Positions 10,302 to 26,078 are shown, counted from the whole stretch's first letter. The stretch is DNA of 63,771 nucleotides, filler included, from Gemmatimonadota bacterium (GCA_003697105.1; 6 parts of 6 records of this genome joined end to end with filler, not necessarily neighbours in it); one strand, 5' to 3'. Notes: generated by a model not told the origin, from the letters alone. A program made the numbers and translations.

Positions 10302-10401
10302 NNNNNNNNNNNNNNNNNNNNNNNNNNNNNNNNNNNNNNNNNNNNTTAATTAATTAANNNNNNNNNNNNNNNNNNNNNNNNNNNNNNNNNNNNNNNNNNN
10401 N
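10302..10401. other. Artificial contig linker
   Basis: N run with central TTAATTAATTAA (stops in all six frames). Confidence 0.99.
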
Positions 10402-11503
10402 CATCTGCGGAGGATTCTTCCGGTGCGGTATCGTCCCTTTGGGGTTCAACAGCGGGGGATTCTCCACGCTCAACGTCATCTGCGGAGGATTCCGGCGCGG
10501 TTTCATCCGCTACAGGGGTTTGGTTGTCTTCCTCTGCTTCACGGATCACCCGCGCAATTTTTTCTTCCAGACCCGCGTTGGTTTTCTGAATATCTTCAAT
10601 TTTATTCCGCTTTTCCTGAATCCAGTTCTGCGCTCGTTCCACAAAATTATCCGACCATGCGGTCTCAATATCTTTTTCCAACTCGATAATCTGTTGTTCC
10701 AACCGGTAAATGACATCTTTATTTTTGGCGATTAAGGCTTGCCAGCGATCAATATGTTCCATCTGGCGTTGTTTCCATACTTTATCCCGTCGTTGTCGGT
10801 CCGAGCGAATTTGGTCAATCCGCTCATTTGCCCGATCCCAAGCGGCATTGAGCGTTTTGCGCAGTTTTTCGCGTTGGGCGCGCCCTAAATATAGCGTTTT
10901 GAATTCCGATTGAATTTGTTTGATGGTATTGAGCACGGCATACGGATCCTCGGTTTCCGCTTGTTCGCGGATCGCTGTGGCGCGGCGGTTGGCATCTTCA
11001 AAGGTTTGGTTCCACATTTCTTCGCGACGCATTTTCCAGAGGTCATTCACATCTCGCCATTGCTTCCAGCAGACATCTTTATCTTCTTTGAACATCCGAA
11101 CGTGGTCGCCTTCATGTTCTACCGGTACTCCTTCGGTGAGCCATTTGAGGGCTTCGTTCAGCAGGTCTTTTGCGCCTCGAATATCGGCACCATTTTCGGC
11201 GGAATTGAGTTTTGCCACGGCCTCATGGATTTTTGTCTCGATTTTCTCCCGTTGTTGGAAGGATCCCAACTGCCGGATTTGCATCAATTCTTCGTGTTCT
11301 GTGCGCGTTTCTTCACACAGATTGCTAAATTTGTCCCACAGGCGTTCCCGGTCTTCTCGCAACAAGTGACCGGCATCTTTAAACATTTGAGAGATTTTGC
11401 GAGCATCGACCCAAAATTCACCGTATTTTCGGTCATGTTGTTCCAGTTCGAGAATCGCCTGTTCAATCTGTTCCGCCGTGACCGGCGTTTTTTGCTCAGA
11501 CAT
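10402..11503 (-). CDS. Helical coiled-coil repeat protein (DUF349-like), 3' end truncated, with acidic tandem repeat tail
   Basis: Recurring RE.LW.KF / QREKLRKTLNAAW helical repeats; tail repeats DETAPESSAD / DDTAPEESSAD; runs into the linker. Confidence 0.55.
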
Positions 11504-11595
11504 CGTTGGTAACTCCTCTTGTAAAAGGTTCGTGAATGGATATGGCAGGTATCGGTTCTGCTGATTTGGGTGATTTCCTCCAAATCAGAATCGCA

Positions 11596-13005
11596 TTATC
11601 TAACCGCACCGGTTGGTGCGTGTGAAGTGTCTAATGTATCAAATTTCAATCGTTCTGGCAACCGTTCTCTTTGGTCAATATCGTTCAAATCTTCTTTTTC
11701 CCGAATCACATCCACCTGACCGGCATCCCCAATCAAGACCACATTGGGGCGATATTCAATAAATTGCATCCACTGGGTCACATTGTATGCTCCCACCGGT
11801 GAGAAGATCAAGCGGGTTCCCCGGTCCAAGGGGGGCAAAAGTGAGCCTTCATCGATAATGTCAATATTCATACACAGGGGACCATAAATGACGGCGGGTT
11901 CATTAACCCCTTGTATTTCGCGATCCAGTTCAATCGTATATTTATACCAGTAGGAGGTGTACAGCAAGTTCACGCCGGCATCCGCTACATAGGAACGGCG
12001 CCCATCTGGCAGGCGTTTTGTCGCAACAACAGAGGTGATTAGATACCCCGCCTCATCGATAAGCCACCGGCCCGACTCTAAAAAGAGGCGTGGAAAATCA
12101 CCCGGTCGCAAATGGCGATAGAGGGCATCGGTGATCCGCTCGGCATAGTCATCAATTGGCGAAATCGCTACCTCCGGCGGTAGATACATCCCTTTGAGGC
12201 GGCTCTTGGAGGGGAAACCACCGCCAATATCCAGATATTCGATCTTAAAACCAAATTGGTCTTCCAGTTCGTAAGCAAAGCACACCATTTTTTCCACTTC
12301 TCGCGCATACGCCGAGGGGTCTAAAATGTACGTCCCAATGTGGCAATGCAACCCGTTGATCGCTATTTTGCCGCCGCTGGCAATCCGTTTGACGGCATCC
12401 ATTGCTTGCCCAGAATCCAGATTTAGCCCAAAACGTGACCACTGGGGATGGATGCCGGTATCCATGTTCAACCGGATGCCGATTTTCACGGGTTTACCCC
12501 AAGCATCTGCTACCCGCTCTATATCATAAATTTCATCAAAATGATCCAGGTTCACCATTGCCCCTTCACTTAACGCTTTTTGGAGAGCAAATGGTGACTT
12601 AAACGGGCCATTAAAAATAATGTCCTTCCCTTCGACTCCCAGCCGGCGCGCTTTGTCGTACTCCATTTCGGAGACCACTTCAGCAATGGAGCCTTCTTGG
12701 TGCATAATGGCACAAATTGCCTGCAAATAGTTGGTTTTGTACGACCAGCCAAAGGTAACATGGGGATAACGCGTGTTGAACGCCGTGAACATCTCCCGGT
12801 AGCGGCGGCGAAGTGTTGCCTCTGAATAGACAAACAACGGCGAACCAAATTGTGAAACCAACTGGTCAATACTGACTCCGTCAATGTCCTTCCGAATCTT
12901 CCGGGCATAATACGGACTGCTACCAAATTTGTTCATAAAACCGCTTTCCAACTTGATAAACACCGGTTTTTCATAGATTTTTTTCATGCCCATATCCTTT
13001 TCCAT
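11596..13005 (-). CDS. Fold-type III PLP-dependent decarboxylase (LysA/Orn-DAP-Arg family) with N-terminal extension
   Basis: SYKTN (PLP Lys), HCHIGT, DIGGGF, ESGR, GPLCMNID, GAY motifs; alternative start at 12987 (MKKIYEKP). Confidence 0.88.
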   Translation of the reverse strand: MEKDMGMKKIYEKPVFIKLESGFMNKFGSSPYYARKIRKDIDGVSIDQLVSQFGSPLFVYSEATLRRRYREMFTAFNTRYPHVTFGWSYKTNYLQAICAIMHQEGSIAEVVSEMEYDKARRLGVEGKDIIFNGPFKSPFALQKALSEGAMVNLDHFDEIYDIERVADAWGKPVKIGIRLNMDTGIHPQWSRFGLNLDSGQAMDAVKRIASGGKIAINGLHCHIGTYILDPSAYAREVEKMVCFAYELEDQFGFKIEYLDIGGGFPSKSRLKGMYLPPEVAISPIDDYAERITDALYRHLRPGDFPRLFLESGRWLIDEAGYLITSVVATKRLPDGRRSYVADAGVNLLYTSYWYKYTIELDREIQGVNEPAVIYGPLCMNIDIIDEGSLLPPLDRGTRLIFSPVGAYNVTQWMQFIEYRPNVVLIGDAGQVDVIREKEDLNDIDQRERLPERLKFDTLDTSHAPTGAVR

Positions 13006-14043
13006 CTAGTTTTCACCCTGAGTCGTTATTTTCTGGAACATCTGCATATCCGTAACCAGCTCATCGGTGTAACGGATATACAGTTTGCCGGGGTCATAAT
13101 CGAAGGTGGCCGGTAAAGGCAACTGGTAAATCTTACGGATGATATTCGCCGGAAGGTTGACTCCGACCCCAGTCGCAAAATATGACCATGCGGGAAAACG
13201 CGGATTGATTTCAATCAGATAAACCGTATCGCCATCGACCATACATTCCATTTCCAGTGGTCCCTTCCAACGATACCGCCGGATAAAGTTGGCTGTGACG
13301 TCTCGCATTCGCTCATTTTTGATGGTCACGCCCGTCCATATTTTACCCAGTGAGGTAATCCACATTTTTTTGATACCCACCTGCCCGAGCAACTCACCCT
13401 GCCCATCACCGACCGCCACAACGTTCATCTCTTCGCCAAAGACCATCCCTTGGACGATAACCGGGTAGCCCCATTCGGCAACCAACTTGTGATAATGCGC
13501 CACCGCTTCCTGATAGGTATAGGCTTTGTACGCCTTATAGAAAGCACCTTTAACCATCACCGGCAAACCGATCCGCTCTACGGCACGGTGCAGTTCTGCC
13601 AGCGAGGTTACCACCTTTGTGGGGGGAATACTCACCTGAATGGCCTCTGCAATATCAGCCAACCGGTCTTTGCCACGCAAGTTAAATTGATCCAAGGTTG
13701 GCAGGAACGTACGAATGCCCAGCGCTGCTATTTCGTGCTGGTATTTGGTAAAAAAGGGCAATTCTGCATCTAAACACGGCAAAACCACATCCAGCCCATA
13801 ACTGTGTTTGATGTAGTGCAACCGTTGCAAATATGCCTCCGCATCCGCGGAGGGATAGGGCATAATGAATGCCTTATTGATAACCCAATCCATGTAGATG
13901 CCCGGCTCCTGAGTGTCGTATGCCAAACCCACAACATGGACCTTGAGATCGGGGTCTTCGTGCAAACTGCGGGCAACGCCTACCCCCGGACCCGGATTAT
14001 CCACCGCATTAATCCCAGAAATACCCACATAGATTTCTGCCAT
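13006..14043 (-). CDS. ATP-grasp ligase (carboxylate-amine ligase-like)
   Basis: PVMVKG, PVIVQ, LIEINPRFPAW ATP-grasp motifs; abuts the decarboxylase with no gap. Confidence 0.88.
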   Translation of the reverse strand: MAEIYVGISGINAVDNPGPGVGVARSLHEDPDLKVHVVGLAYDTQEPGIYMDWVINKAFIMPYPSADAEAYLQRLHYIKHSYGLDVVLPCLDAELPFFTKYQHEIAALGIRTFLPTLDQFNLRGKDRLADIAEAIQVSIPPTKVVTSLAELHRAVERIGLPVMVKGAFYKAYKAYTYQEAVAHYHKLVAEWGYPVIVQGMVFGEEMNVVAVGDGQGELLGQVGIKKMWITSLGKIWTGVTIKNERMRDVTANFIRRYRWKGPLEMECMVDGDTVYLIEINPRFPAWSYFATGVGVNLPANIIRKIYQLPLPATFDYDPGKLYIRYTDELVTDMQMFQKITTQGEN

Positions 14044-14069
14044 ACATGCTCCTTTCCAGCTTCCAGCCG

Positions 14070-14306
14070 CTAGATCAACTTGTGGGTCCGTAAAACATCT
14101 ATAAAATCATTGATGTCCCGTTCCGCGTCTTCGGGTTGGACTTCAAAATCTGCACAGAGGTCTTCGACAATTTGCGATGGTGATTTTTGGGCGCGCAAGC
14201 CTTGCAGGATAGTCAAGCCGGTGGGGTTGGTCGTGAAGCTTTCACCTGTCGTTGGATCAAACACAAAACCTTCATCATTTATTGCCAATTGGTGCAGCCG
14301 GTTCAT
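14070..14306 (-). CDS. PqqD-family / RiPP recognition element (RRE) protein
   Basis: 78 aa; GFVFDPTTGESFTTNPTGLTILQGL...IVEDLCADFEVQPEDAERDINDFIDVL pattern of three strands plus three helices typical of PqqD; AAAGGAG RBS. Confidence 0.88.
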   Translation of the reverse strand: MNRLHQLAINDEGFVFDPTTGESFTTNPTGLTILQGLRAQKSPSQIVEDLCADFEVQPEDAERDINDFIDVLRTHKLI

Positions 14307-14358
14307 GGGGTCTCCTTTCCGATAAAGTCGTCGTCAAGCCAGATACGCTTTAGCTACT

Positions 14359-14913
14359 CTAATCAAGTTCGTTATGGTGCTTCTCATGTTCGTCGGGGTC
14401 TTCCTTGGAGTCTTCTTGTTGAAGAGTGACCGTTAGCGAACCGGTCTGTTTGACCCCGGTATTCGCCGGAGGTTTAATCCCCGCTTCGTGTAGCCTCATC
14501 GACCATGTTTTAATGGTCTCTTTTTGGGAGTCATTTAACTTTGCGTCTGGATGTAGGGGCAGATAGATTGCTAGGGGCATTTTGCCTTCTGCGACTTCTT
14601 CCCAAATTTCCTCCGCCAAATCGATCTGTTCTTCTGCATCCATTAGACCCCATTCCGAAAAATTGAGATATTCCCTGCCGTGATTGACATCCCGCGCTAC
14701 CAACCACGAGACCGGAGCAATTTTACTGTACCAGGGCCACACCGTTTCATGGGAATGGCAATCATAACAAGATGTTTTAAAGATCGATTTGACACCGGGG
14801 GGAGCCTCTAAATCCGCCCGAACAACCGGATTTGTGCGCTCCACCGGCACAAATTGAATCCCGATAAACCCAAGCCCCAAAAGGACAACCATAATGCGTA
14901 ATAGTGCTTTCAT
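14359..14913 (-). CDS. Haem-binding domain protein (single CxxCH c-type cytochrome)
   Basis: Signal/TM then IQFVP, SCYDCHS, WPWYS..APVSW, LNFSEW, MPL..Y..LHP. Confidence 0.85.
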   Translation of the reverse strand: MKALLRIMVVLLGLGFIGIQFVPVERTNPVVRADLEAPPGVKSIFKTSCYDCHSHETVWPWYSKIAPVSWLVARDVNHGREYLNFSEWGLMDAEEQIDLAEEIWEEVAEGKMPLAIYLPLHPDAKLNDSQKETIKTWSMRLHEAGIKPPANTGVKQTGSLTVTLQQEDSKEDPDEHEKHHNELD

Positions 14914-16247
14914 ACCCTCTCCTCCACTGAGCCCTCGATATGGGTAATAACAAAAAGGGTAAAATCCCCGCTTTTTCCTTTAATTTGAATGTTTTCCAAG
15001 GTTTCTGTTTGTACCGGCAGGGTTAATCGATTTCGGACAGCTTGACTTACAATAACTTGACCGGGTTTGGCAATGGATTCCAGACGAGAGGCAAAATTGA
15101 CCGTATCTCCAATGACGGTGTAATTCATGCGGTCTGGGGAGCCGATATTACCCACAATCGCCTCACCGCAATGGATGCCAATCCCTAGGGAAATGGGAAG
15201 GTCAACATCTTGTTGTTTTGCCTCCCGCAAGTATGCCGCAAAGATTTTCTGCATTTTCAAGGCGGCACGGACTGCGCGTTCCGTATCATCCGGTTTGCGG
15301 ATCAGGGCACCGAAAACCACCATCACACTGTCTCCAATAAATTTATCAATCGTTCCGCCAAATTCGTGAATGACACCGGTCATTTTTGAGAAAATCTGGT
15401 TCAGAATACGCACCACGTGTTCCGGTGAGGTTTGTTCTGAGAATGCCGTAAACCCCCGAATATCCGCAAAAAGCACGGTTACATCCTGCTTAATACCACC
15501 TAATTGGATCTGACCCGGTTGTTTGAGGATCGTCTGCGCCACTTCCGGCGAGACGTAGTTCCCGAAGATCGTCTTCAGTTGATCCTGTTCAGCTTGTTGG
15601 GTTTCAATCCGTTTACCTGCCTGATTGACGATGACACCCAGCAAGAGAAACAACATCCCCGAGCCTAGGGTCAGCACCACACTGACCCGCCAGACGACAG
15701 CCCCGATTTCCCGGTCCATCCCTTCTAACGATTGGTCTAGCACCAGAACGTAGCGCACGGTATCGTCAATGGCAATCGGCTGCCCGGTACAGATCACATG
15801 ATGCCCGTACTCCTTTTGGGTGCGCTCCTCGACAAACAACGTGCCGGCTAACGGAATTGTCGCTTCTTCATCTGTTTCGGTTTGCCCCAGTTCATCTGTT
15901 TCCAAACTGGCGATGATCTCCTGTGCCGCATTGACAACCAGCGCTTCGGTTATCTCTTTGTCTTCCGCAATATCTTCCAAATAATCCTGCACCTTAGCCA
16001 AAAAAGCATCTTCCGTTAAATGTCTTTGATGATATTGGAGTGCCGCTTCTCGGACCAAATCACCGATAAATTCAGATAGATATAACGCATTTTCCTGTGT
16101 GCGAGCGGTGATCTGCTGAATTTGAATGCGCGTAATCACGACCACCGTGATCGCAATAATCAGCAAGGAGACCAACGCTCCTCGCAGAAAAAATTGTGTT
16201 AATAACTGCCGGCGATATGAATATACCATGAACTTTTGCATCTCCAT
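14910..16247 (-). CDS. Membrane-anchored class III adenylate/guanylate cyclase
   Basis: Two TMs flanking a periplasmic domain; LFADIRGFT, DKFIGDSVM, YTVIGDTVNFASRLE, IKGK. Confidence 0.92.
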   Translation of the reverse strand: MEMQKFMVYSYRRQLLTQFFLRGALVSLLIIAITVVVITRIQIQQITARTQENALYLSEFIGDLVREAALQYHQRHLTEDAFLAKVQDYLEDIAEDKEITEALVVNAAQEIIASLETDELGQTETDEEATIPLAGTLFVEERTQKEYGHHVICTGQPIAIDDTVRYVLVLDQSLEGMDREIGAVVWRVSVVLTLGSGMLFLLLGVIVNQAGKRIETQQAEQDQLKTIFGNYVSPEVAQTILKQPGQIQLGGIKQDVTVLFADIRGFTAFSEQTSPEHVVRILNQIFSKMTGVIHEFGGTIDKFIGDSVMVVFGALIRKPDDTERAVRAALKMQKIFAAYLREAKQQDVDLPISLGIGIHCGEAIVGNIGSPDRMNYTVIGDTVNFASRLESIAKPGQVIVSQAVRNRLTLPVQTETLENIQIKGKSGDFTLFVITHIEGSVEERV

Positions 16248-16339
16248 AACCAGATGTTACTTCCATATTTCCTAAGATGGTATCCCCTTCAGGGGGAGTG
16301 GGGGCACGTATTTTAGGGCAACCGGTTTACCACCAGCCC

Positions 16340-17116
16340 TCAATAGCGGAAATGTTTAATCGCCTCGCCCTTTTCCTCAATTTCCGTCATGGCTTGAATC
16401 CCCAGTTGCAGATGGATGTCGGTCCATTTGGCGGTCACCTGTTTATCGGATTGCTCTGTTTTGACACCATCGGGTGTAACCGGCACATCCGAGACCAACA
16501 ATAACGCCCCGCGTGAAATCTCGTTATAATGCCCCACAATAAAAAGGGTGGCGGTTTCCATATCAATGGCAAGACAGGTCATGGCGCGCAGTTTTTCTCG
16601 GAACGCCTGATCATGCTCCCAGACACGGCGATTGGTCGTGTACACTACGCCGGTACGATATTCATAGCCTCCCTCGACGATCTTTTCGGAAACAAATTTA
16701 TGGAGTTTAAACGAAGGTAGCGCTGGTACTTCCGGAGGATAATAATCATTGCTCGTCCCTTCGCCCCGAATAGCGGCAATTGGCAGAACAAAATGCCCTA
16801 TTTCACTGGATTTTTTCAGTCCCCCACATTTACCTAAAAAAAGCACCCCTTGGGGACGAATCGCACTCAACAAATCCATGATAGTCGCCGCATTTGCCGA
16901 CCCAATCCCAAAATTGATGATCGTCAACCCTTGACCATTACTCGCGGCTTGCATCGGCTTGCCCAGCCCGTACACTTGGCAATCAAACTGTTCCGCAAAT
17001 TGCACCACATAATTTTGAAAATTAGTCAACAAAATGTACGATCCAAATTCTTCCAACGGCATACCGGTATAACGGGGTAACCAATTTTTCACGATTTCAG
17101 TACGGTCAATCCACAT
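16340..17116 (-). CDS. amn: AMP nucleosidase (short, PNP/UDP family)
   Basis: NWLPRYTG, LLTNF, INFGIGSANAATIMDLL, GKCGGL, DMETAT. Confidence 0.85.
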   Translation of the reverse strand: MWIDRTEIVKNWLPRYTGMPLEEFGSYILLTNFQNYVVQFAEQFDCQVYGLGKPMQAASNGQGLTIINFGIGSANAATIMDLLSAIRPQGVLFLGKCGGLKKSSEIGHFVLPIAAIRGEGTSNDYYPPEVPALPSFKLHKFVSEKIVEGGYEYRTGVVYTTNRRVWEHDQAFREKLRAMTCLAIDMETATLFIVGHYNEISRGALLLVSDVPVTPDGVKTEQSDKQVTAKWTDIHLQLGIQAMTEIEEKGEAIKHFRY

Positions 17117-17161
17117 TCGTCCGTGTCTCCTTCTCGTTTGGATTATTTAACAGCAAATAAG

Positions 17162-17998
17162 TTACGAGCCTTTCGCCTCTACCCGTCTTCCCCACATCCA
17201 CATTCCAATGGCGACGCCCATCATACCTAAGCAGAGCATCTGTCCCATGGAAAATTGCAAAAAGACAAATCCGAGATGGGCATCCGGTTCACGGAAGTAT
17301 TCGATAAAAAATCGAACAAAGCCATATCCGAACACGTACATCCCGCTTAAAAAACCGAGAAACGGTGTTTTTTTGCGCAACAACCACAGTACAAAAAACA
17401 GAAAAATTCCCTCAAAAAAAGCTTCATACAACTGCGAAGGGTGGCGCAAAAGATTATCTCCCGCGTTTGGAAAGTACATCCCGATAGCGGCTTCCGTAAC
17501 CCGTCCGTAAAGCTCGCCATTGATGAAATTCCCGATCCGTCCAAAGGTGTATCCCAAGGGAATTGCCGGAGCAAACAGGTCGGCAACGTGGAAAAAGTGC
17601 ATCTGATGTTTGCGAGCAAAGAGAATCCATGCGATAATCACCCCGATCAGCCCCCCGTGATACGACATGCCGGAAATCCCCACAAACCGTCCCTCACGAA
17701 AGGGCAAAAAAATATGGATCGGGTCCTGAATAAGCATACGAAAGTCATAAAAAAACACGTAACCCAACCGCCCTCCCAAGATCACGCCCACAATCGCCCA
17801 CATAATCGCATCGGCAGCAAAGTCTCGCGGATAGCGCAATTTGTCATGTGTTATCCGGTATTGAACAAGGAAGTACGTCAAGGCAAACGCCACAATATAC
17901 ATCGTGCCGTACCAGCGTATCGCAAAACTACCGACACTAAAAATAATTGGATTCATTTGAGATGGCAGATGTTGCCACCACTGGATAAAAGCCTCCAC
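17162..17998 (-). CDS. lgt: Prolipoprotein diacylglyceryl transferase
   Basis: IRWYG, GGRLGYV, GMSYHGG, GRIGNFINGELYGR, HPSQLYE, EYFREPD. Confidence 0.95.
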   Translation of the reverse strand: MEAFIQWWQHLPSQMNPIIFSVGSFAIRWYGTMYIVAFALTYFLVQYRITHDKLRYPRDFAADAIMWAIVGVILGGRLGYVFFYDFRMLIQDPIHIFLPFREGRFVGISGMSYHGGLIGVIIAWILFARKHQMHFFHVADLFAPAIPLGYTFGRIGNFINGELYGRVTEAAIGMYFPNAGDNLLRHPSQLYEAFFEGIFLFFVLWLLRKKTPFLGFLSGMYVFGYGFVRFFIEYFREPDAHLGFVFLQFSMGQMLCLGMMGVAIGMWMWGRRVEAKGS

Positions 17999-18018
17999 AA
18001 ATTACTCCTTCAAAATAA

Positions 18019-19272
18019 TCAAGAATGGGGTGTTACTTCCACTTCACACCAGTCATCGCCCATTGCCCGGCATTTGACTTGAACCCCCCAAAACGTGTCA
18101 TCCCGACGTCGGAGGTGGTCATAAAAGTCATCGTTTAGTACTGGTTTCGTCGTGATGTCTTCACAATAGAGGAGATTCATCACTCCGGCGGCACCACCGG
18201 TCACTAGGTAACTCACCGGTCGAGTTGATTTACCGTACATCGCTAGGTAACTGTTGCTCTCATAATCACCATCGACCCGCAAGACCATTCGCTTGCCCGG
18301 GTCAAGTTCTGTCACCGTCCAATAGCCCCAACCCAGTGCGTTCACTACCGCCATCATACCACTGATCCAGTCTTCCCGGGTTTGGCATTGCGGCACCACC
18401 AACCCGTACCACTCATCCGATTCCATAATACCCCCAAAGGTATAAACGGCACAGACGTGACCCGCTTCCACAAACAGATCACGTGCCAGTTCTGGTTCGC
18501 CGGTAGCGTTGGTGATTGCCCTTGCCGCTTCATAAGTGATGTAATTGTAGTAATTGGCAAAATGGCGGGTGAGGTAAACACCAAAGGCGGGGATCAATCC
18601 ATCGGCATTGCCTTCCAGGGGTATCCCCCGGACGGCATTTGTGATGCCGGCTTCATCTACTTGAGTGGGTATCCCCTTTCGACGCGAGGTGGCATCCCGG
18701 ATGGTTACGCCTGTACCCACGGAAACCGGCACATACGGCATTTCTGGGTCAATAGCAACGTTAAACTCATTCTGAGAATGTCCCATGCTTAAACATTTTT
18801 CTTGAGCCACCCGGTAAAATCCGGGGGTTTTGTAATAGGCAATCGCCATAGCCGCCTGTATAAAACCGCAGGTGAAATAATCAACGGGTTGTTCGCGGAC
18901 ACCCCACTTTTCTTTCCAGCCCAGACTGTAGTGGGTAAGCGGTGTGACCACCGTTCCGCCGTTCTCCGGTAAACCGCTCAAATCCAGTGTACCGAATCCT
19001 AATTGCCCATAGATCGTGCTGGCAACACGCAACCGGTGCTGGGGGTCCCGAATGTGAGGGTGGGTTTCAAACAACCGGTGTAGCATCCCATAGGTACAGA
19101 CCACTCCCCCGCGTGTTAAAATTTCGGCGGCAGGAATATAAGACCCCGCATCCTCAATGGTGCGCTGCAAAAACAGATTGTAATGGTTGCAGTGGAAGAT
19201 CATCGGTTCGCCATAGAGTACCGCGAGACCTTCCTGCTCATGGAGCGTAATTTCCGCCTTGAAAGGTGTCAT
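18019..19272 (-). CDS. Tandem V4R (4-vinyl reductase-like) domain protein
   Basis: Two similar halves, each with a G(F/W)G motif and a terminal C..MG motif (KCLSMGHSQNEF; KCRAMGDDWCEV). Confidence 0.7.
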   Translation of the reverse strand: MTPFKAEITLHEQEGLAVLYGEPMIFHCNHYNLFLQRTIEDAGSYIPAAEILTRGGVVCTYGMLHRLFETHPHIRDPQHRLRVASTIYGQLGFGTLDLSGLPENGGTVVTPLTHYSLGWKEKWGVREQPVDYFTCGFIQAAMAIAYYKTPGFYRVAQEKCLSMGHSQNEFNVAIDPEMPYVPVSVGTGVTIRDATSRRKGIPTQVDEAGITNAVRGIPLEGNADGLIPAFGVYLTRHFANYYNYITYEAARAITNATGEPELARDLFVEAGHVCAVYTFGGIMESDEWYGLVVPQCQTREDWISGMMAVVNALGWGYWTVTELDPGKRMVLRVDGDYESNSYLAMYGKSTRPVSYLVTGGAAGVMNLLYCEDITTKPVLNDDFYDHLRRRDDTFWGVQVKCRAMGDDWCEVEVTPHS

Positions 19273-19289
19273 GTTCCCCTCTCCCTCGT

Positions 19290-19493
19290 TTAGTTGATGG
19301 TAATCGGTTTCCCTAAAATAGCGTGTGCCGCTTTTAGTAGCTTTTCTTCCAGCACGGGGTCATCCGGTGTGGACTCATCAATTTTACTTAGATTAACTCC
19401 CGCTTTTAACCCCACCCGGGCAACGATCAATTTGGCTTGTGCCCCTTTAGATTCCGCCGCAATGGCATCGATTATTTTTTTAAGCCGTCCCAT
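19290..19493 (-). CDS. Small conserved-looking hypothetical protein (67 aa)
   Basis: GGGAGG RBS, tight operon spacing, GLKAG..L..I...TPDDP motif. Confidence 0.65.
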   Translation of the reverse strand: MGRLKKIIDAIAAESKGAQAKLIVARVGLKAGVNLSKIDESTPDDPVLEEKLLKAAHAILGKPITIN

Positions 19494-19547
19494 AGCAACC
19501 CTCCCTGATCCGGTGAAAAATGGCATAAAATTCTGCTAATATCATAA

Positions 19548-19868
19548 TTATAACAACTGTTGAACCTGCTGTTGGTACTGCTCACCAAAATTGGGGAAAA
19601 GTGCCTCTAGGGCACGGATCGCATCCATTTTAAGCAGGTAGTGAAAGGTAACGGTCACTTCCATTGCACCGAAAATACCGGTAATTAAAATTTGGTCATC
19701 CCAATAAAACCGGAAAAAGCCTGCGCCGGCATGTTCCACGACGTATTTGTTTGTCACCCGTTGCGAGTCCAGCCGGTCTAAATCCAGGGGTTGATCCAGC
19801 CGGAGCCGTAAATGAACGCCTTTTTCCAAGCAACAATGACCTATTTCCACATTTGCCACCCGGCTCAT
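19548..19868 (-). CDS. Hypothetical protein (106 aa)
   Basis: ATGA-coupled to the upstream MCP-like gene. Confidence 0.6.
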   Translation of the reverse strand: MSRVANVEIGHCCLEKGVHLRLRLDQPLDLDRLDSQRVTNKYVVEHAGAGFFRFYWDDQILITGIFGAMEVTVTFHYLLKMDAIRALEALFPNFGEQYQQQVQQLL

Positions 19869-20923
19869 TGCAACATCTCTCCTAAATCTTCAGCAGTTTG
19901 GAGTACATTTCGGGTTACATCTTGAATTTCGCCGATCTCGCGCTCAATGTCTGCTAATTGCTCTACTAACCGTTTCAGAAGGGGGGTCTGTTGATCCACG
20001 GAGGCTAACGTATCATTGAAAATATCATATAGCCTTTGAATGGACTGCTCAATTAAGATGGCATTTTGGCTGATCGAGGCAAGCTCATCAACGATCGTCT
20101 CGGCACGACTGATATCCGTTTTCAATTGGTCCAAAATATCCGCGGAGTTCGCAAATAGGTCATCGAGATATATCTGCACTTTTCGGGTGGAATCCCGTGC
20201 TTCCAACGCCAGCCGGGAAAGTTCTTCGGCAATCACCCCAAAACCTCGCCCCCGGTCACCTGCCCGCGCGGCTTCGATGGTTGCATTGAGTGCCAACATA
20301 TTGATGGCATCCGTTACCATATCATTTGTGTTCAGTATTTCGGTTAAATCCTGAATTCCACGTTCCAAAATATCCAGTTTGGTAATATGATCCCGGCTCA
20401 TATGGAGGGTCGTTTCTGTCTCTTTTAGATGTTCTTGAATGGAGTGCAAGGTCTCTGCAGTTATCATCCGCACCTGTTGGTACTCCGCATTATTCGTCTC
20501 TGACAAAGACATTAACTGCGCATTCTGGTCGATCAAGGTTGACGTCATGGATCGGAACTTGAGCAACGTCTCATTGAGCCGGTCTTCATTTTCCAAACCA
20601 GCTTCAGTGACAGCAGAAAGGGTGAACCGGACAATATCCAACGTATTTTGGAGGCTCTCCAGTTGATCCGTTACGGAAGATACAGCCTCGCCACGGGCAT
20701 CTGGCGCTTCGGATTCTGGATCGAAATCCGGCGGTGATGGGGGTGAAGATGGTACTTGCCGGTGGTACTGCTGAATCATCAGTCCAGCGGTGACGAGTAA
20801 CATCAGTGAAAATAATCCACGGGCGAAAAGCCAAGGTAGCGGGTCATGCCAGCGAGTATCCAGCACAACGACAAATGCGGATAGAATCAGTAATATCGTG
20901 CCCAATCGAGGAAGCCAAGACAT
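19865..20923 (-). CDS. Methyl-accepting chemotaxis-like protein (short, two closely spaced TMs)
   Basis: NMLALNATIEAARAGDRGRGFGVIAEEL signalling hairpin. Confidence 0.85.
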   Translation of the reverse strand: MSWLPRLGTILLILSAFVVVLDTRWHDPLPWLFARGLFSLMLLVTAGLMIQQYHRQVPSSPPSPPDFDPESEAPDARGEAVSSVTDQLESLQNTLDIVRFTLSAVTEAGLENEDRLNETLLKFRSMTSTLIDQNAQLMSLSETNNAEYQQVRMITAETLHSIQEHLKETETTLHMSRDHITKLDILERGIQDLTEILNTNDMVTDAINMLALNATIEAARAGDRGRGFGVIAEELSRLALEARDSTRKVQIYLDDLFANSADILDQLKTDISRAETIVDELASISQNAILIEQSIQRLYDIFNDTLASVDQQTPLLKRLVEQLADIEREIGEIQDVTRNVLQTAEDLGEMLQ

Positions 20924-21074
20924 GGATACTCCTTGGAGAGAGGTTCGGTTTCATTCGCATTTTCGCACAAACCCGGCAACTTGTCAATCGTTTTCTAATG
21001 ATCGAGACCGATGTCCGGTAATTTGCGGCATTTTTGCACAAGGGGTACCATTCCATGGGGCAAGAGGGGGAGGG

Positions 21075-22325
21075 TTAACTGAGATGCTGGGCAACATCGG
21101 TGGCATACGCCCGCAGCGCCGGTAACACACCGGCAAGCGCACTGAGAAGGATAATCCCCAGTGGCGCTAAGAGGAAGATCCATTGCGGTAAAAAGAGATG
21201 AAGCACAACACCGGTTTGTGCCCGAATAACGATACCTGCCACTCCTACAATCAACAGATAAAATCCGAAACCCACCAGCGACCCCCAGACGCCAATCAAG
21301 GTGGACTCTAGGATGATAACAGTGAACAAGGTACGGCGACGCGCACCCAATGCCCGCAAAATAGCAAATTGCTGGCGGCGTTCGCTAATGGTGTTGTAAA
21401 TACTCGCCAAAATGGAGCCGGCGGCAACAAGCACCACGAGATAGGCTACAATCGTTAAAACCCGGTGAATCCAGCCCAATTTCTCAAATAAGTCTGCCAT
21501 TACTCGTCCAATAGGATACGCCAGCGTTGCCATGTTGCCTTGTTTGTTGATCTCCTGATCCAGAAAGAAGCCGCCCTGTGGGTCGCGCAATTTGAGCATC
21601 ACGACACTCACTTCTTTGTGCGCATCCGGGATAGGTTGCCCGCGTACCGGTTGGTACACCTCACCACTACCTCGCAGTACGTGCCCTGCCATCCGAAAAA
21701 CACCTTCAATCGGAATCCAAATAACCCGGTCCGAAGGGGTATTGGTCGGCTTTAAAATACCGGTCACGACATAGTCCTCGTCATGGTCGTGCCCCCCTGT
21801 GCCCAAGCCGTGAGTTGGGTGAAAGGTATCGCCCACCTTCAGACCTGTTTTTTGCGCGGCGAAACTACCGAGCACCGCTTCCTGCCGGGTGGAATCAAAA
21901 AATCGACCGTGCTTCAGTTCGTATTTTTTGCCTTGCTGGTACTCAAAATCCGTGAAGAGCACATCCGTCGTACCGACAATCCGAAAACCCTTATAATGGT
22001 CTCCGACAGCATAGGGAATTGCCAGTTCCACGCGGGGGTCACGCTGCATCTGCTGGAACAATCGCCACGGGATATTGCCCGGCGAGGTCTCCAAATGAAA
22101 GACGGCATTTAACACCAGTTGCAACGGGCTACCCCGTGCTCCTAAAACCGCATCAAAGCCGAAGTTACCACCGGTAAATGCCCGGTAAGTCTGGGTTTGT
22201 AAACTGAAAACCGCCATCACCAATCCGGCGGCGAGCGCCACTGAAAAGGTGGTAACCAGTGTTGAAAGGGCATGTTGGCGCAAACTACGCCAAACAATGC
22301 GGATCAAACCACGGAATTTTGCCAT
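21075..22325 (-). CDS. MacB/FtsX-family ABC transporter permease
   Basis: GARGSPLQLVLNAVFH, ERRQQFAILRALGA, PALRAY. Confidence 0.88.
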   Translation of the reverse strand: MAKFRGLIRIVWRSLRQHALSTLVTTFSVALAAGLVMAVFSLQTQTYRAFTGGNFGFDAVLGARGSPLQLVLNAVFHLETSPGNIPWRLFQQMQRDPRVELAIPYAVGDHYKGFRIVGTTDVLFTDFEYQQGKKYELKHGRFFDSTRQEAVLGSFAAQKTGLKVGDTFHPTHGLGTGGHDHDEDYVVTGILKPTNTPSDRVIWIPIEGVFRMAGHVLRGSGEVYQPVRGQPIPDAHKEVSVVMLKLRDPQGGFFLDQEINKQGNMATLAYPIGRVMADLFEKLGWIHRVLTIVAYLVVLVAAGSILASIYNTISERRQQFAILRALGARRRTLFTVIILESTLIGVWGSLVGFGFYLLIVGVAGIVIRAQTGVVLHLFLPQWIFLLAPLGIILLSALAGVLPALRAYATDVAQHLS

Positions 22326-22376
22326 AACGGTCTGTCTTTTAATCAAAATTGCCTACCAAAGAAGGTATGGCAACGC

Positions 22377-23057
22377 CTACGCTAATACCCGGTTAATCGT
22401 TTCAAATGGAATCACGTGATCAAACTGAGCCAACATTGCTGGGTCGTGGCTGACCAGTAGCAGAGCCGCACCTTGTTCGGCGCAGACTCGACGGATCAAG
22501 TTGAGTGCCTCCTGTGCATGGTGCACATCCAGATTGCCAGTGGGTTCATCGGCGAGAACCAGTTGGGGTTGGTTCGCCAATGCGCGAGCCACCGCAACCC
22601 GTTGTTGTTGTCCGGCAGAAAGTTGTGACGGCCGGTAGTGCAATCGATCCGCCAAGCCGACGGTTTCCAGCAAGTAGCGCGCCCGTTGCCGGTCAATCCC
22701 CTGCCCGAACATCATCGCCAACTCGACATTTTCGAGCGCCGTGAAACCATCCAATAGGTTAAACGCCTGAAATATGTAGCCGGTGCTTCTGGCGCGCACG
22801 ACATCCCGCTCCGGCTCTGATAGCGCCGTAATCTCCTGTCCATCAAGGAAAATCTGCCCGCTATCTGCTTGTAAAATTCCGGCAATCAGGTGGAGAAAGG
22901 TCGTTTTGCCGGAGCCACTGCGTCCATGAACGGCAATTTGGTCACCGGAGGAAACGTGAAATTCCGGTACGTCAATAATCGGTAAGGGGTCGCCATCTGG
23001 CGTGTAATAGCTTTTTTTAAGGTGGGTGACAGTAAGAAGTGGTGCAGAATCCGGCAT
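22377..23057 (-). CDS. ABC transporter ATP-binding protein (LolD/MacB-like)
   Basis: [33 protein letters not shown]. Confidence 0.92.
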
Positions 23058-23079
23058 CGTATTCCCAACAGGTGAACGT

Positions 23080-24096
23080 TCACAATTGTTTACCCATCGC
23101 CGCGGCAATTTGGCGACATTGGTCTATCATCATTAAAAATTGAGCGGGGTTAAGGGATTGGACGCCATCCGAAAGCGCTTGATCCGGGTCTGGGTGAACT
23201 TCCACCAGTAAGCCGTGTGCTCCTGCCGCTACCGCCGCCCGTGCCATTGCGGGTACATATTCCCGAATACCAACGCCATGGCTCGGATCGGCAATGACCG
23301 GCAGGTGGCTGCGCGCCTGTAGGGTCGGAATTGCGGACACATCAAAGGTGTTGCGGGTGTAATTCTCAAATGTGCGAATCCCCCGTTCGCAGAGTATGAC
23401 TGCCGGATTGCCTCCTGCCATGATATATTCCGCCGACATCAGCAGTTCTTCAAGGGTCGCGGAAATGCCTCGTTTGAGTAAAACGGGTTTGGGGAGCGCC
23501 CCCAACTCCTTGAGGAGATCATAATTGTACATGTTACGGGCGCCCACCTGAAAAATATCGACGTAATCCTGCATCAGTGGTAATTGCGATTTATCCATCA
23601 CTTCCGAGACAACCAGTAAATCGTACCGGTCGGCGGCGGCACGGATCAGCTTTAAACCGGGTTCCCCCAATCCTTGAAATGAATAAGGCGACGTGCGTGG
23701 TTTGAATGCGCCACCGCGCAGGATTTTCGCGCCGCTTTCCTTGACGATTGCCGCAACCGTGTTAATTTGCGCTTCGGACTCAATCGAACACGGTCCCGCC
23801 ATGAGGATCACCTCGTCTGGGCGCCCGATCTCCACATCGCGAATGCGGATGGTGCTGTCCGCCGGATGGAACGAACGATTGGCTAATTTGTAAGGTTCTG
23901 TAACCTGATGCACGTAATCAACTCCATCCAACACCGCTATTTTGTCCGGGTCAAAAGGGCGATGATTTCCGAGGGTCCCCCAAGCGGTACGTTCCACTCC
24001 AGAGATACGCTGTACCGGAATACCCCACTCTGCAAAGCGATGTTCTACCTGTTGAATTTGCGCTTCTGTGGCATGTTTTTTCATTACCACCAGCAT
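23080..24096 (-). CDS. aroF: DAHP synthase, type I-beta with N-terminal regulatory domain
   Basis: AGPCSIES, RGGAFKPRTSPYSFQGLG, QVGARNM, CERGIRTFE, DPSHG. Confidence 0.93.
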   Translation of the reverse strand: MLVVMKKHATEAQIQQVEHRFAEWGIPVQRISGVERTAWGTLGNHRPFDPDKIAVLDGVDYVHQVTEPYKLANRSFHPADSTIRIRDVEIGRPDEVILMAGPCSIESEAQINTVAAIVKESGAKILRGGAFKPRTSPYSFQGLGEPGLKLIRAAADRYDLLVVSEVMDKSQLPLMQDYVDIFQVGARNMYNYDLLKELGALPKPVLLKRGISATLEELLMSAEYIMAGGNPAVILCERGIRTFENYTRNTFDVSAIPTLQARSHLPVIADPSHGVGIREYVPAMARAAVAAGAHGLLVEVHPDPDQALSDGVQSLNPAQFLMMIDQCRQIAAAMGKQL

Positions 24097-24360
24097 GATA
24101 TCTCCTTCATTAAGATATGCTTCCCAGCGAATTCGGCAAGAGTTGTTTGCACGGAAGATTAGCCGCGCCATTATAAAACGTGGCGAATTCGTTGACATCT
24201 ATTTATTCCAAAATCAGCGGAGTCACTCGTATGAGAAAAATGTCCCGTACACGTGCCATCCGGCTATGATGCAACGGGGTACGGTGAATAATATAACGCA
24301 CCAAATTTCACTGGGATAAAATGGCATCGCAAGTCTGGCATGGCTCTATTTCCGTGCAGG

Positions 24361-25941
24361 TCACTCCGCTTCAGGCTCGTTCTCATCCCCTTTAAGTGGA
24401 CGCATCATCGGGAAAAGTAACACATCGCGGATGCTGGGAGCATCGGTCAAGAGCATCACCAGCCGGTCAATACCGATACCACAACCGCCGGTGGGGGGCA
24501 TACCGTATTCAATCGCGGTGAGGAAATCTTCGTCCAGTACTTGTGCTTCTTCATCCCCCCGTGCTTTTAAGCCCATTTGTGCTTCAAACCGCTCCCGCTG
24601 GTCGATGGGATCATTTAACTCGCTAAAGGCATTCGCGTACTCCGCATTGGCGATGTACAACTCAAACCGTTCGACGGTTTTATCGTCGCTCCGGTGTTTT
24701 TTCGCCAGCGGGGAATTTTCCACCGGGAAATCCATCACAAACGTGGGTTGTACCAATTTTGGCTCGACCCATACGTCAAAGATTTCTTCCAGTAAATGTC
24801 CGCGGTCCATCGTATCATCCACGACAATCGGTTCTGGGACACTCGCTTGCGATGCCGAGTCATTCGGGTGCTCCTGATGAAACTGTGTGCGCAATTCCAG
24901 CGCGGTTTCATTGAGCTGGTGGATGACTTCGCGCAATTGAGCCTCATCCATCGACTTCGTATCAAAACCGGTATGCGTTTGAATCAGGTCGAACCACTTT
25001 GCCCGGTGGAACGTACTCAGGTCAATCTCCATGCCCTGATAGGTAATATTCAGCGTCCCCAACACGTTCTGGGTGACGGTCTGGATCAATTTTTCAGTGA
25101 TGTTCATCATATCATAGTAATCGGCATACGCTTGGTAAAACTCCATCATAGTGAATTCCGGGTTGTGGGTGCGGTCCATCCCTTCATTACGGAAATCTTT
25201 GCAGATTTCATACACCCGGTCAAATCCCCCGACGATCAACCGTTTGAGATAAAGCTCATCGGCAATGCGCAGATAAAGCGGGATATTAAGGGCATTCAGG
25301 TGCGTTTTGAACGGGCGGGCATTGGCGCCGCCATAAAGCGGTTGCAGGGTAGGGGTTTCGACCTCCAAAAAGTGGAGACCATCCATAAACAATCTTGTTT
25401 CGCGGATGATCCGGCTACGGAGTTCAAACGTTCGCCGCACATCGGGATTCATAATCAAATCAGCGTAACGCTGGCGATAGCGGATTTCCTTATCTTTCAA
25501 GCCGTGCCATTTTTCGGGCAACGGATGAATCGATTTGCATAAAACAGAAATCGCGCCGGCGTGGATGCTTTTTTCACCGGTTTTGGTGGTAAAGGCGTAG
25601 CCTTCTGCACCTAAAAAATCGCCGACTTCGAGTTTTTTGAACAGTCCGTTATAAACATCTGCTCCCACGTCATCCCGCCGGATGTAAATCTGGATTCTAC
25701 CGGAAGCATCTTCCAGATGGCAAAACGAGGCTTTACCCATCCGCCGTAAGGACATGATCCGCCCGCACACCCGGACATTTTCTTGACTCTCGCTCAGGTG
25801 TTCAAATTGGTCCACCACTTCCTGCGCAAAATGGGTGCGGTCATAGCGGTAGGGATACGGATTAAAGCCTTGCTGGCGGATTGCCTCTATTTTAGCGATC
25901 CGCTCCGCGATCAAAGGGTGCTGATGATGTTCTGCTGCCAT
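24361..25941 (-). CDS. lysS: Lysine--tRNA ligase (class II)
   Basis: RYRQRY, GGANARPF, LRIADELYLKRL, FRNEG, ELNDP, YGMPPTGG. Confidence 0.97.
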   Translation of the reverse strand: MAAEHHQHPLIAERIAKIEAIRQQGFNPYPYRYDRTHFAQEVVDQFEHLSESQENVRVCGRIMSLRRMGKASFCHLEDASGRIQIYIRRDDVGADVYNGLFKKLEVGDFLGAEGYAFTTKTGEKSIHAGAISVLCKSIHPLPEKWHGLKDKEIRYRQRYADLIMNPDVRRTFELRSRIIRETRLFMDGLHFLEVETPTLQPLYGGANARPFKTHLNALNIPLYLRIADELYLKRLIVGGFDRVYEICKDFRNEGMDRTHNPEFTMMEFYQAYADYYDMMNITEKLIQTVTQNVLGTLNITYQGMEIDLSTFHRAKWFDLIQTHTGFDTKSMDEAQLREVIHQLNETALELRTQFHQEHPNDSASQASVPEPIVVDDTMDRGHLLEEIFDVWVEPKLVQPTFVMDFPVENSPLAKKHRSDDKTVERFELYIANAEYANAFSELNDPIDQRERFEAQMGLKARGDEEAQVLDEDFLTAIEYGMPPTGGCGIGIDRLVMLLTDAPSIRDVLLFPMMRPLKGDENEPEAE

Positions 25942-26078
25942 TTTAGAGGTTTCCTTTCTATGATATTCACTATGATATTTAATTAGCTAAAATTGCCATA
26001 ATCTGATTAAAATCGTCCGGTAAACCGGAGGTAAACTGCATTTTTTCTTGGGTGTGCGGGTGCACAAACTCGATTTCG

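Follow-up and report, generated by a model that had tools for sequence, protein, structure and literature searches.

RiPP recognition elements (RREs; RiPP, a peptide made on the ribosome and modified after translation) serve worldwide as class-independent hooks for genome mining and are assumed to bind free precursor peptides. What, then, does such an element recognize when no precursor peptide is encoded beside it? This question is raised by a locus in a 63,771-nucleotide stretch of DNA, filler included, from a Gemmatimonadota bacterium (GCA_003697105.1), referred to here as the window. On the minus strand, at positions 11596 to 14306, three adjacent genes encode a PqqD-type RRE protein, an ATP-grasp ligase and a pyridoxal 5′-phosphate (PLP)-dependent decarboxylase. 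A first-pass annotation of the window had singled out this trio as an operon with no stand-alone precursor. Our analysis points to the decarboxylase itself: the predicted ligand of the RRE is a leader-like motif in a conserved tail at the N-terminus of this enzyme.

The open reading frame (ORF) calls place reading frames of 78, 345 and 469 aa at 14070-14306, 13006-14043 and 11596-13005, respectively, with a gap of 26 bp between the PqqD and ligase genes and of 0 bp between the ligase and decarboxylase genes. The overall span, the 78-aa length and the gaps agree with the first-pass annotation. Judged by an alignment with 35 orthologues, translation of the decarboxylase probably begins at the 7th codon (window 12987), which gives a protein of 463 aa and, with this refined start, a gap of 18 bp after the ligase gene. 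On the 5′ side, 52 bp separate the trio from a gene for a haem-binding-domain protein at 14359-14913, and on the 3′ side 92 bp separate it from the next gene, which starts at 11503; neither gap holds a precursor ORF, as had been annotated. Also as annotated, a Pfam search of the contig that carries the trio (G000:C9, window 10402-26078, entered after an N run and a spacer; G000 is this genome) found no pqq, radical-SAM or lasso-cyclase gene.

The PqqD-type protein resembles lasso leader-binding proteins

We first consider the 78-aa protein (14070..14306, minus strand), a PqqD-type leader-binding protein of lasso B1-like character. Pfam assigns residues 14-78 to PqqD (PF05402) with E = 2.6e-14 and 53.7 bits, relative to a cut-off of 23.4. 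The top NCBIfam match was the lasso PqqD chaperone model, at 2e-12 and 47.2 bits, below its cut-off of 70, while the model for the PqqD of pyrroloquinoline quinone (PQQ) biosynthesis, TIGR03859, gave 23 bits, under its cut-off of 46. When a profile built from 31 orthologues was compared with solved structures, the nearest proteins were the lasso B1 proteins TfuB1 (7.2e-10) and TbiB1 (5.6e-9), whereas the genuine PqqD 3g2b reached just 0.013 with the same profile. The RRE on which the first-pass annotation had depended is a true PqqD-type domain, with lasso B1 proteins as its nearest relatives.

The genome contains three further PqqD-domain ORFs. Two are adjacent (G000:C48:1178-1649) and the third (G000:C14:7131-7328) sits within a 554-aa frame. 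These additional ORFs on C48 and C14 may serve other RRE-dependent pathways.

The decarboxylase carries a conserved leader-like tail

All decarboxylase orthologues share an N-terminal extension of approximately 33 aa, which in the window protein comprises residues 1-33 (12889..12987, minus strand). Because alignments to FigC (7kh2) and to 1twi start only at query residues 32-34, FigC and the diaminopimelate (DAP) decarboxylases lack this tail. Residues 5-10 of the tail read YEKPVF (12958..12975, minus strand) and follow the family pattern [YWF]xxPx[ILMF]. In an alignment of 111 decarboxylases (80 metagenomic and 31 genomic), position 5 holds Y (91), W (16) or F (1), with 3 gaps; position 8 holds P in 109, the remaining 2 being truncated; and position 10 holds I (91), L (12), M (4) or F (2), with 2 gaps. 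The motif was found in every decarboxylase whose N-terminus falls on its contig and is retained in cluster representatives of just 37-50% identity. This aromatic-x-x-Pro-x-aliphatic motif is the sole element of the tail kept in all clades, including those where the rest of the tail has changed. In lasso pathways, the leader peptide motif recognized by B1 proteins is YxxPxL, as described in PMC10368454.

We predicted a complex of three chains consisting of the ligase, the decarboxylase and the PqqD protein, the last as the scored partner, using a 31-row alignment for each. The complex scored 0.70 (0.69, 0.70 and 0.71 in individual runs), compared with 0.01 for the best of three controls; of the pairs used to set the mark for this score, 116 of 157 solved complexes attained it, as did 2 of 215 mismatched pairs, a calibration from which our three chains with their own alignments differ. 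Runs shared at least 79% of their contacts, and the partner had a predicted local distance difference test (pLDDT) value of at least 85. The predicted interface joins decarboxylase residues 2-13, together with residue 325, to PqqD residues 15, 22-30, 32-33 and 50-75, and on the PqqD side it corresponds to the classic RRE cleft between the β3 strand and the helix. Both kinds of control scored 0.00-0.01, and replacing the decarboxylase by an unrelated protein lowered the score from 0.70 to 0.01. The model thus puts the PqqD protein on the tail of the decarboxylase and not on the ligase. In the monomer model of the decarboxylase, residues 1-30 have pLDDT values below 50, indicating a disordered or flexible tail.

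A FigC-like decarboxylase beside an ATP-grasp ligase

We next examined the family and pocket of the decarboxylase (463 aa, 11596..12987, minus strand), a PLP-dependent enzyme of the alanine-racemase fold. Pfam matches were Orn_Arg_deC_N (5.5e-34) and Orn_DAP_Arg_deC (1.3e-11). The NCBIfam models for lysA (TIGR01048; 216.5 bits, cut-off 297.9) and FslC (NF041039; 223.8 bits, cut-off 500) both matched below their cut-offs. The nearest solved relative is FigC (7kh2, 4.5e-59), followed by the best DAP decarboxylase (1.7e-40) and by BtrK (2.7e-23). The protein is 62-73% identical to 30 orthologues, and the PLP lysine, the glycine loop and the catalytic cysteine are invariant among 31 orthologues. 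The catalytic-cysteine loop, C372-M-N-I-D (11860..11874, minus strand), aligns with C-M-Q-H-D in FigC and with C-E-S-S-D in the Methanocaldococcus jannaschii DAP decarboxylase; C372 is invariant, and M373, N374, I375 and D376 are each at least 90% conserved.

PMC7857480 describes two replacements in the FigC pocket: a Thr takes the place of the Arg by which DAP decarboxylase binds the distal DAP carboxylate, and a Met takes the place of the acidic residue beside the catalytic Cys that binds the side-chain amine of the substrate. The same paper groups FigC, SbnH, AcsE, MccE and BtrK in one clade, whose decarboxylases take acylated or tethered amino acids as substrates. In the alignment, the window protein likewise has a Thr where DAP decarboxylase has this Arg. 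Since the enzyme scores below the lysA cut-off, has FigC as its nearest solved relative and has both DAP-binding determinants replaced, we conclude from its sequence that it falls outside canonical LysA and should be grouped with enzymes that decarboxylate amino acids in acylated or tethered form. At the level of the enzyme family, this upholds the earlier view that the locus does not represent lysine biosynthesis, and the chemistry of the FigC/SbnH/AcsE/MccE/BtrK clade is compatible with a logic in which a ligase acts before the decarboxylase.

The middle gene (13006..14043, minus strand) encodes a 345-aa ATP-grasp carboxylate-amine ligase of the carbamoyl-phosphate-synthase-like subgroup. 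Pfam gave weak ATP-grasp matches, with CPSase_L_D2 alone above its cut-off (22.0 versus 19.8), and NCBIfam matches at E ≤ 0.01 were carbamoyl-phosphate-synthase-like models with no graspetide-type model among them. The AlphaFold2 model (pLDDT 89.2) matched many ATP-grasp enzymes in Foldseek with a probability of 1.00 and template modeling (TM) scores up to 0.76; 2pn1 ranked first, followed by carbamoyl-phosphate synthase, biotin carboxylases, PurT and L-amino-acid ligase. Relatives of the ligase number in the thousands, the best 120 being 61-68% identical. Identity to orthologues in other phyla is 55-68%, with E278, N280 and R282 invariant, and E278 and N280 fit the Mg/ATP-binding E-x-N motif of the superfamily.

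Two cluster representatives resemble fusions of cassette proteins. P0130 (871 aa) looks like an ATP-grasp ligase joined to a decarboxylase, with a YxxPxI tail kept between them, and P0141 (781 aa) like a decarboxylase joined to a urea-transporter (UT) domain. Both fusions are putative and may be artefacts of gene calling.

The trio is the core of a larger, scattered cassette

We asked how consistently the genes of the three proteins occur together. A genome scan with the ATP-grasp ligase, limited to one genome per species, yielded 40 loci from Calditrichota, Aquificota, Gemmatimonadota, Nitrospinia, Planctomycetota, Verrucomicrobiota, Chlamydiales, Desulfurellales/Hippea and Cellvibrionaceae. 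The decarboxylase gene follows the ligase gene in 38 of 39 testable loci (the exception is L032; L042 ends within the ligase gene), and the PqqD gene precedes the ligase gene in all 38 testable loci. Downstream, a gene for an inner-membrane protein (UT-M23) in which a UT-like channel is joined to an M23 metallopeptidase and to a C-terminal domain rich in beta structure was detected by script in 23 of 25 testable loci, and L036, one of the scripted misses, does carry it. A gene of the family of a 318-aa YaiO-like protein lies downstream in 20 of 24, frequently in two copies.

A second scan, of metagenomes and seeded with more distant decarboxylases, gave 80 loci with a similar arrangement. Of the testable loci, 62 of 63 have the PqqD gene upstream and 52 of 55 have the UT-M23 gene downstream; under a strict filter, 62 of 66 have the ligase gene upstream. 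Two of the four ligase misses (L078 and L125) arise from ORFs that were called too long, L127 has barely enough upstream DNA, and L056 is a genuine exception. The linkage of the trio is far beyond chance. The neighbourhood comparison proposed along with the first-pass annotation therefore shows the three families together, in the same order, in 40 genome and 80 metagenome loci; the three-gene operon stands as a conserved unit, but the full unit is larger and includes the UT-M23 and YaiO-like genes.

The additional genes would place part of the cassette at the envelope. The M23 metal-binding motifs are conserved in 25 UT-M23 orthologues. ESM Atlas comparisons, which we treat as leads only, liken the 318-aa family to a YaiO-like outer-membrane barrel and the C-terminal domain to DUF3108. 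Urea transporters have both termini in the cytoplasm, and on this topology the M23 peptidase would face the cytoplasm.

Phyla as distant as Aquificota, Calditrichota, Gemmatimonadota, Planctomycetota, Chlamydiota and others share cassette proteins at 55-73% identity, and within a phylum the distribution is patchy: in a sample of 151 genomes from the phylum to which one carrier belongs, a ligase orthologue (E ≤ 1e-60) was present in a single genome, the carrier itself. Such close similarity across phyla, together with so uneven an occurrence inside them, points to an accessory module spread by transfer. We view the conserved cassette as a set of five to six genes that has been scattered horizontally, with the trio as its cytoplasmic core. 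No acyl-carrier-protein family was found by Pfam among the conserved neighbour clusters, and none of the five cassette proteins matched a PADLOC anti-phage model at E ≤ 0.01 (0 families for 5/5).

A model for the cassette core

Our favoured reading, on which we place about even confidence, is that the core of the cassette is an RRE that clamps the decarboxylase by its own leader-like tail, in a pathway where a ligase acts before a decarboxylase and the product is handed over to the envelope. In the docking model, which agrees with the conservation of the tail, the RRE would clamp the [YW]xxPx[IL] motif at the decarboxylase N-terminus with no free precursor involved. By analogy with the FigA/FigC and BtrJ/BtrK pairs, the ATP-grasp enzyme would join a carboxylate to an amino acid by an amide bond. 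The decarboxylase, with a presumably enlarged pocket devoid of DAP-binding residues, would by the same analogy remove the α-carboxylate of the larger substrate to give an N-acyl amine or amide. RRE docking could keep the decarboxylase in a complex with the ligase, with the membrane peptidase-channel protein or with both, so that the intermediate may pass to the next protein and the product may be trimmed or carried through the envelope. The templated pathway of ligation and decarboxylation suggested by the first-pass annotation is retained in part: a FigC/BtrK-type decarboxylase does lie beside an ATP-grasp ligase, but the predicted ligand of the RRE is located on the decarboxylase.

If confirmed, this model would explain a class of orphan RREs that lack a precursor and would represent a new mode of enzyme-complex assembly, in which, it appears, a full-size metabolic enzyme bears a leader motif and a lasso-type RRE has taken on the job of docking it. 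It would also point to an uncharacterized envelope-spanning cassette whose product could be a new amine- or amide-type metabolite.

Several observations weigh against this model. The docking is a prediction and not a measurement, and because RRE-leader complexes have already been solved, passing the mark shows a likeness, possibly a learned one, rather than binding. The three-chain model contains no confident contact between the PqqD protein and the ATP-grasp ligase, nor does it give evidence against such binding; the bridging of the decarboxylase to the ligase via PqqD is a step that we infer. Covariation between tail position 7 (K/R) and PqqD position 67 (D/E) appears extensive, with 87 concordant and 6 discordant cases in 93 pairs, but these reduce to 4 independent changes on the tree, for which a sign test was not significant. 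Mutual information between tail and PqqD columns was dominated by variable columns and was uninformative. Conservation of the tail also continues past the docking motif, with G16 in 88, N19 and K20 in 95 each and G22 in 92 of the 111 sequences, and F21 conserved as well. As far as the alignment can tell, this exceeds what a passive linker needs, and docking leaves it unexplained.

Further points on the same side concern the partners and the product. The ATP-grasp ligase has no informative close relative, and a search of 8 related loci (133 kb) returned no Rfam match, hence no riboswitch clue to the metabolite. At L056 (5511-6860), a decarboxylase whose tail motif is intact occurs with neither a PqqD nor an ATP-grasp gene in the 5.5 kb upstream and with no UT-M23 gene downstream, and at L032 no decarboxylase gene lies in the 1.8 kb past the ligase gene. 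Finally, no other lysA-like gene was found in the assembly, which is 96.85% complete, only a 20-bit fragment matching the lysA model.

Alternative explanations

The conservation that follows the docking motif keeps alive the idea that the tail is a substrate and the decarboxylase an enzyme-borne precursor. Here, the RRE would bind the tail, the ATP-grasp ligase would attach an amino acid, for example through its side-chain carboxylate, to the G-x-x-N-K-F-G segment, the attached residue would be decarboxylated in cis, and the M23 peptidase would trim or release the tail or the adduct. Such a scheme reproduces lasso-pathway logic, in which a peptidase works alongside a protein that binds the leader and an enzyme that forms an amide with ATP, and suits a flexible tail in which G16, N19, K20 and G22 are conserved well beyond the needs of a linker. 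The homologue BtrK (2.7e-23), moreover, acts on a tethered glutamate. On the other hand, K20 is the only conserved nucleophile and is S, R, L or Y in divergent clades that have the full cassette, and a 463-aa precursor used for a single turnover would be costly. We regard this explanation as unlikely.

As a candidate in its own right, Lys20 of the tail is disfavoured as a general site of covalent attachment, since divergent clades replace it.

A bolder form of the enzyme-borne precursor makes the decarboxylase its own RiPP-like precursor throughout, the adduct being built on it, decarboxylated in cis, released as a small amine or amide by the membrane-anchored M23 peptidase and exported via the channel and the barrels. 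We hold this to be improbable; were it true, the cassette would be a self-templated small-molecule factory that has spread horizontally over at least nine phyla.

It is likewise improbable, in our judgement, that the docking of the tail is an artefact of modelling, that the PqqD protein has some other partner, and that the cassette runs a plain small-molecule pathway of ligase and decarboxylase in which the tail serves, for instance, as an active-site lid or a regulator. The structure predictor may remember solved RRE-leader complexes, and the covariation loses significance once relatedness is considered. In addition, residues 1-14 of the PqqD protein are strongly conserved yet fall outside the predicted interface. 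An artefact would nevertheless have to coincide with a motif that is kept in all clades, that is the motif lasso B1 proteins recognize, and that occurs together with a B1-like PqqD protein. It would also have to accommodate controls of both kinds at 0.00-0.01 and the joint presence of tail and PqqD gene in 62/63 and 38/38 testable loci.

We then considered a conventional RiPP or scaffold-peptide pathway in which the precursor is encoded elsewhere in the genome, the RRE delivers it to the ATP-grasp ligase and the decarboxylase tailors it. RREs normally bind free leader peptides, and the genome has three further PqqD-domain ORFs. Scaffold-peptide pathways with RiPP machinery are also known (PMC13622209). 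Our searches nevertheless returned no such precursor. Within 400 nt upstream of the PqqD gene at 37 loci there was no conserved small ORF, and just pairs of close relatives clustered. A six-frame search of the genome with regular expressions for the leader, or for the leader plus NKFG, found a single match in a plausible context, namely the decarboxylase itself. A cassette that moves between phyla would be expected to bring its own precursor, and a PLP decarboxylase requires a free α-amino acid group, which a backbone peptide lacks. A distant precursor is accordingly very unlikely. The puzzle of the missing precursor stated in the first-pass annotation thus stands insofar as no separate peptide was found, but the predicted docking offers a different solution, with the decarboxylase tail as RRE ligand and no separate carrier.

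A last question is whether the decarboxylase supplies lysine in this organism. The check for a separate lysA suggested along with the first-pass annotation gave a divided result: a canonical lysA is present besides the cassette enzyme in 5 of 5 cassette-bearing genomes from other phyla, but none was found in this assembly, where dapA and dapF are both present. None of three genomes of the class (G000, G006 and G007) has a lysA match above the cut-off, and all three have DapF. G006 and G007 each encode a different non-canonical decarboxylase of the same fold (L128 5989-7278 and L130 5989-7227), the two being 28% identical to one another, and neither has a counterpart in this genome. G007 has no cassette decarboxylase and no canonical lysA either, from which it seems that the class has some uncommon route to lysine in which the cassette plays no part. 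That the decarboxylase is simply the working LysA of this organism, its linkage having no bearing on chemistry, is therefore highly improbable despite the want of any other lysA-model match here bar the 20-bit fragment and of any counterpart to the G006 and G007 enzymes, given its lysA score of 216.5 against a cut-off of 297.9, the changes of the DAP-binding Arg to Thr and of the acidic residue to Met, the canonical lysA in all five other cassette genomes, the situation in G007 and the patchiness of the cassette (1/151 genomes).

Genomic context and neighbouring genes

In the window, the trio is separated from the rest of its cassette by the minus-strand gene at 10402..11503, which encodes a coiled-coil protein with an acidic repeat and is cut by the end of the contig. 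The stretch at window 10320-10401 is a contig join of N runs and a short spacer with stops in every frame, and the listed ORF at 10346-11503 reads through N, the true gene being cut by the contig start at 10402. The encoded protein has no Pfam or NCBIfam match and no homologue among 40 related loci, and its gene is, by this comparison, a lineage-specific insertion. The acidic repeat resumes in the first bases of contig G000:C51 (L044 1-403), where it is followed by the gene for a protein of 691 aa that has both UT and M23 peptidase domains and then by that for the 318-aa YaiO-like protein. The remaining cassette is therefore hidden from the contig of the trio because the assembly broke within the repeat.

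Upstream of the trio, the haem-binding-domain gene (PF14376) belongs to a same-strand pair at window 14359-16247; it lies 52 bp upstream of the PqqD gene, and its start overlaps the end of a membrane adenylate/guanylate cyclase gene by 4 bp. Neither neighbour is kept at other trio loci. A scan of the contig for promoters and terminators gave counts at chance level.

Related loci vary in other ways. The L056 decarboxylase may be a relocated copy, and in L032 (610-2285 and downstream), the one genome locus to depart from the pattern, a gene for a DCC1-like thiol-disulfide oxidoreductase is inserted between the PqqD and ligase genes. In five Aquificota loci (L012, L016, L018, L021 and L042), genes for a CusA/CzcA-type resistance-nodulation-division (RND) efflux pump directly precede the PqqD gene, and the upstream set also includes the outer-membrane and fusion proteins of the pump and a DUF2231 membrane protein; these neighbours may hint at a metal-related role or may be coincidental. 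Proteins with a type IX secretion sorting tail (FlgD-Ig/Por_Secre_tail) are encoded at L047 2235-3590 (G000:C51) and L007 13478-15118, where they adjoin or separate YaiO-like genes in Calditrichota-like loci, with FG-GAP repeats in L007.

Comparison with known systems

The closest parallel to the predicted docking is the recognition of lasso leaders by B1 proteins (TfuB1, 6jx3; TbiB1, 5v1u/5v1v). Both share a B1-type RRE and a YxxPxL-type motif, and docking at the β3 strand and helix is predicted here as well. Unlike in lasso pathways, the motif stands at the N-terminus of a 463-aa enzyme with no short precursor, and the Thr at position −2 of lasso leaders is not conserved in the decarboxylase tail. 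The genome's only match to the lasso B2 model (PF13471) has 24.6 bits, below the cut-off of 26, and neither B2 nor cyclase genes occur among the conserved neighbours or on the contig, the scale at which cyclases were searched for.

For the chemistry, the closest parallel is FigA/FigC (FslA/FslC) of rhizoferrin biosynthesis. Both decarboxylases have a Met after the catalytic Cys and a Thr where the DAP decarboxylases have Arg, and the proposed logic is similar, with an amide formed on an amino acid followed by decarboxylation of the larger product. The systems differ in that the ligase is an ATP-grasp enzyme here and an NRPS-independent siderophore (NIS) synthetase there, in that His357 of FigC is Ile here, and in that FigC has neither an N-terminal tail nor an RRE.

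In butirosin biosynthesis (BtrI/BtrJ/BtrK), an ATP-grasp ligase, BtrJ, is likewise paired with a decarboxylase of the same fold. The substrate of BtrK is a tethered glutamate, according to PMC7857480. In contrast to that system, no acyl carrier protein was found among the conserved neighbours here, and the match to BtrK is much weaker than that to FigC. Compared with LysA, the window enzyme has the same fold and catalytic residues but carries an additional tail and has two DAP-binding determinants replaced.

Other systems also place a peptide segment on or with an enzyme as a handle or carrier. Precursors of the borosin/omphalotin type are fused to their own tailoring enzyme, and LysW and LysX form an amino-group carrier system in which LysX is an ATP-grasp enzyme. 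Unlike LysW, the PqqD protein does not end in an acidic carrier tail; in 38 sequences the C-terminus is hydrophobic instead, and we reject a LysW-like carrier role for it.

Full-text literature searches found no paper describing this gene combination, though supplements of RRE-mining studies may list it. The ingredients, namely recognition of leaders by RREs and pairing of ligases with decarboxylases, are known, and it is their combination that appears to be new. Specifically, what appears new is that a PLP decarboxylase bears a fused leader of the lasso type and is encoded in a cassette that spans the envelope and includes a UT-M23 protein.

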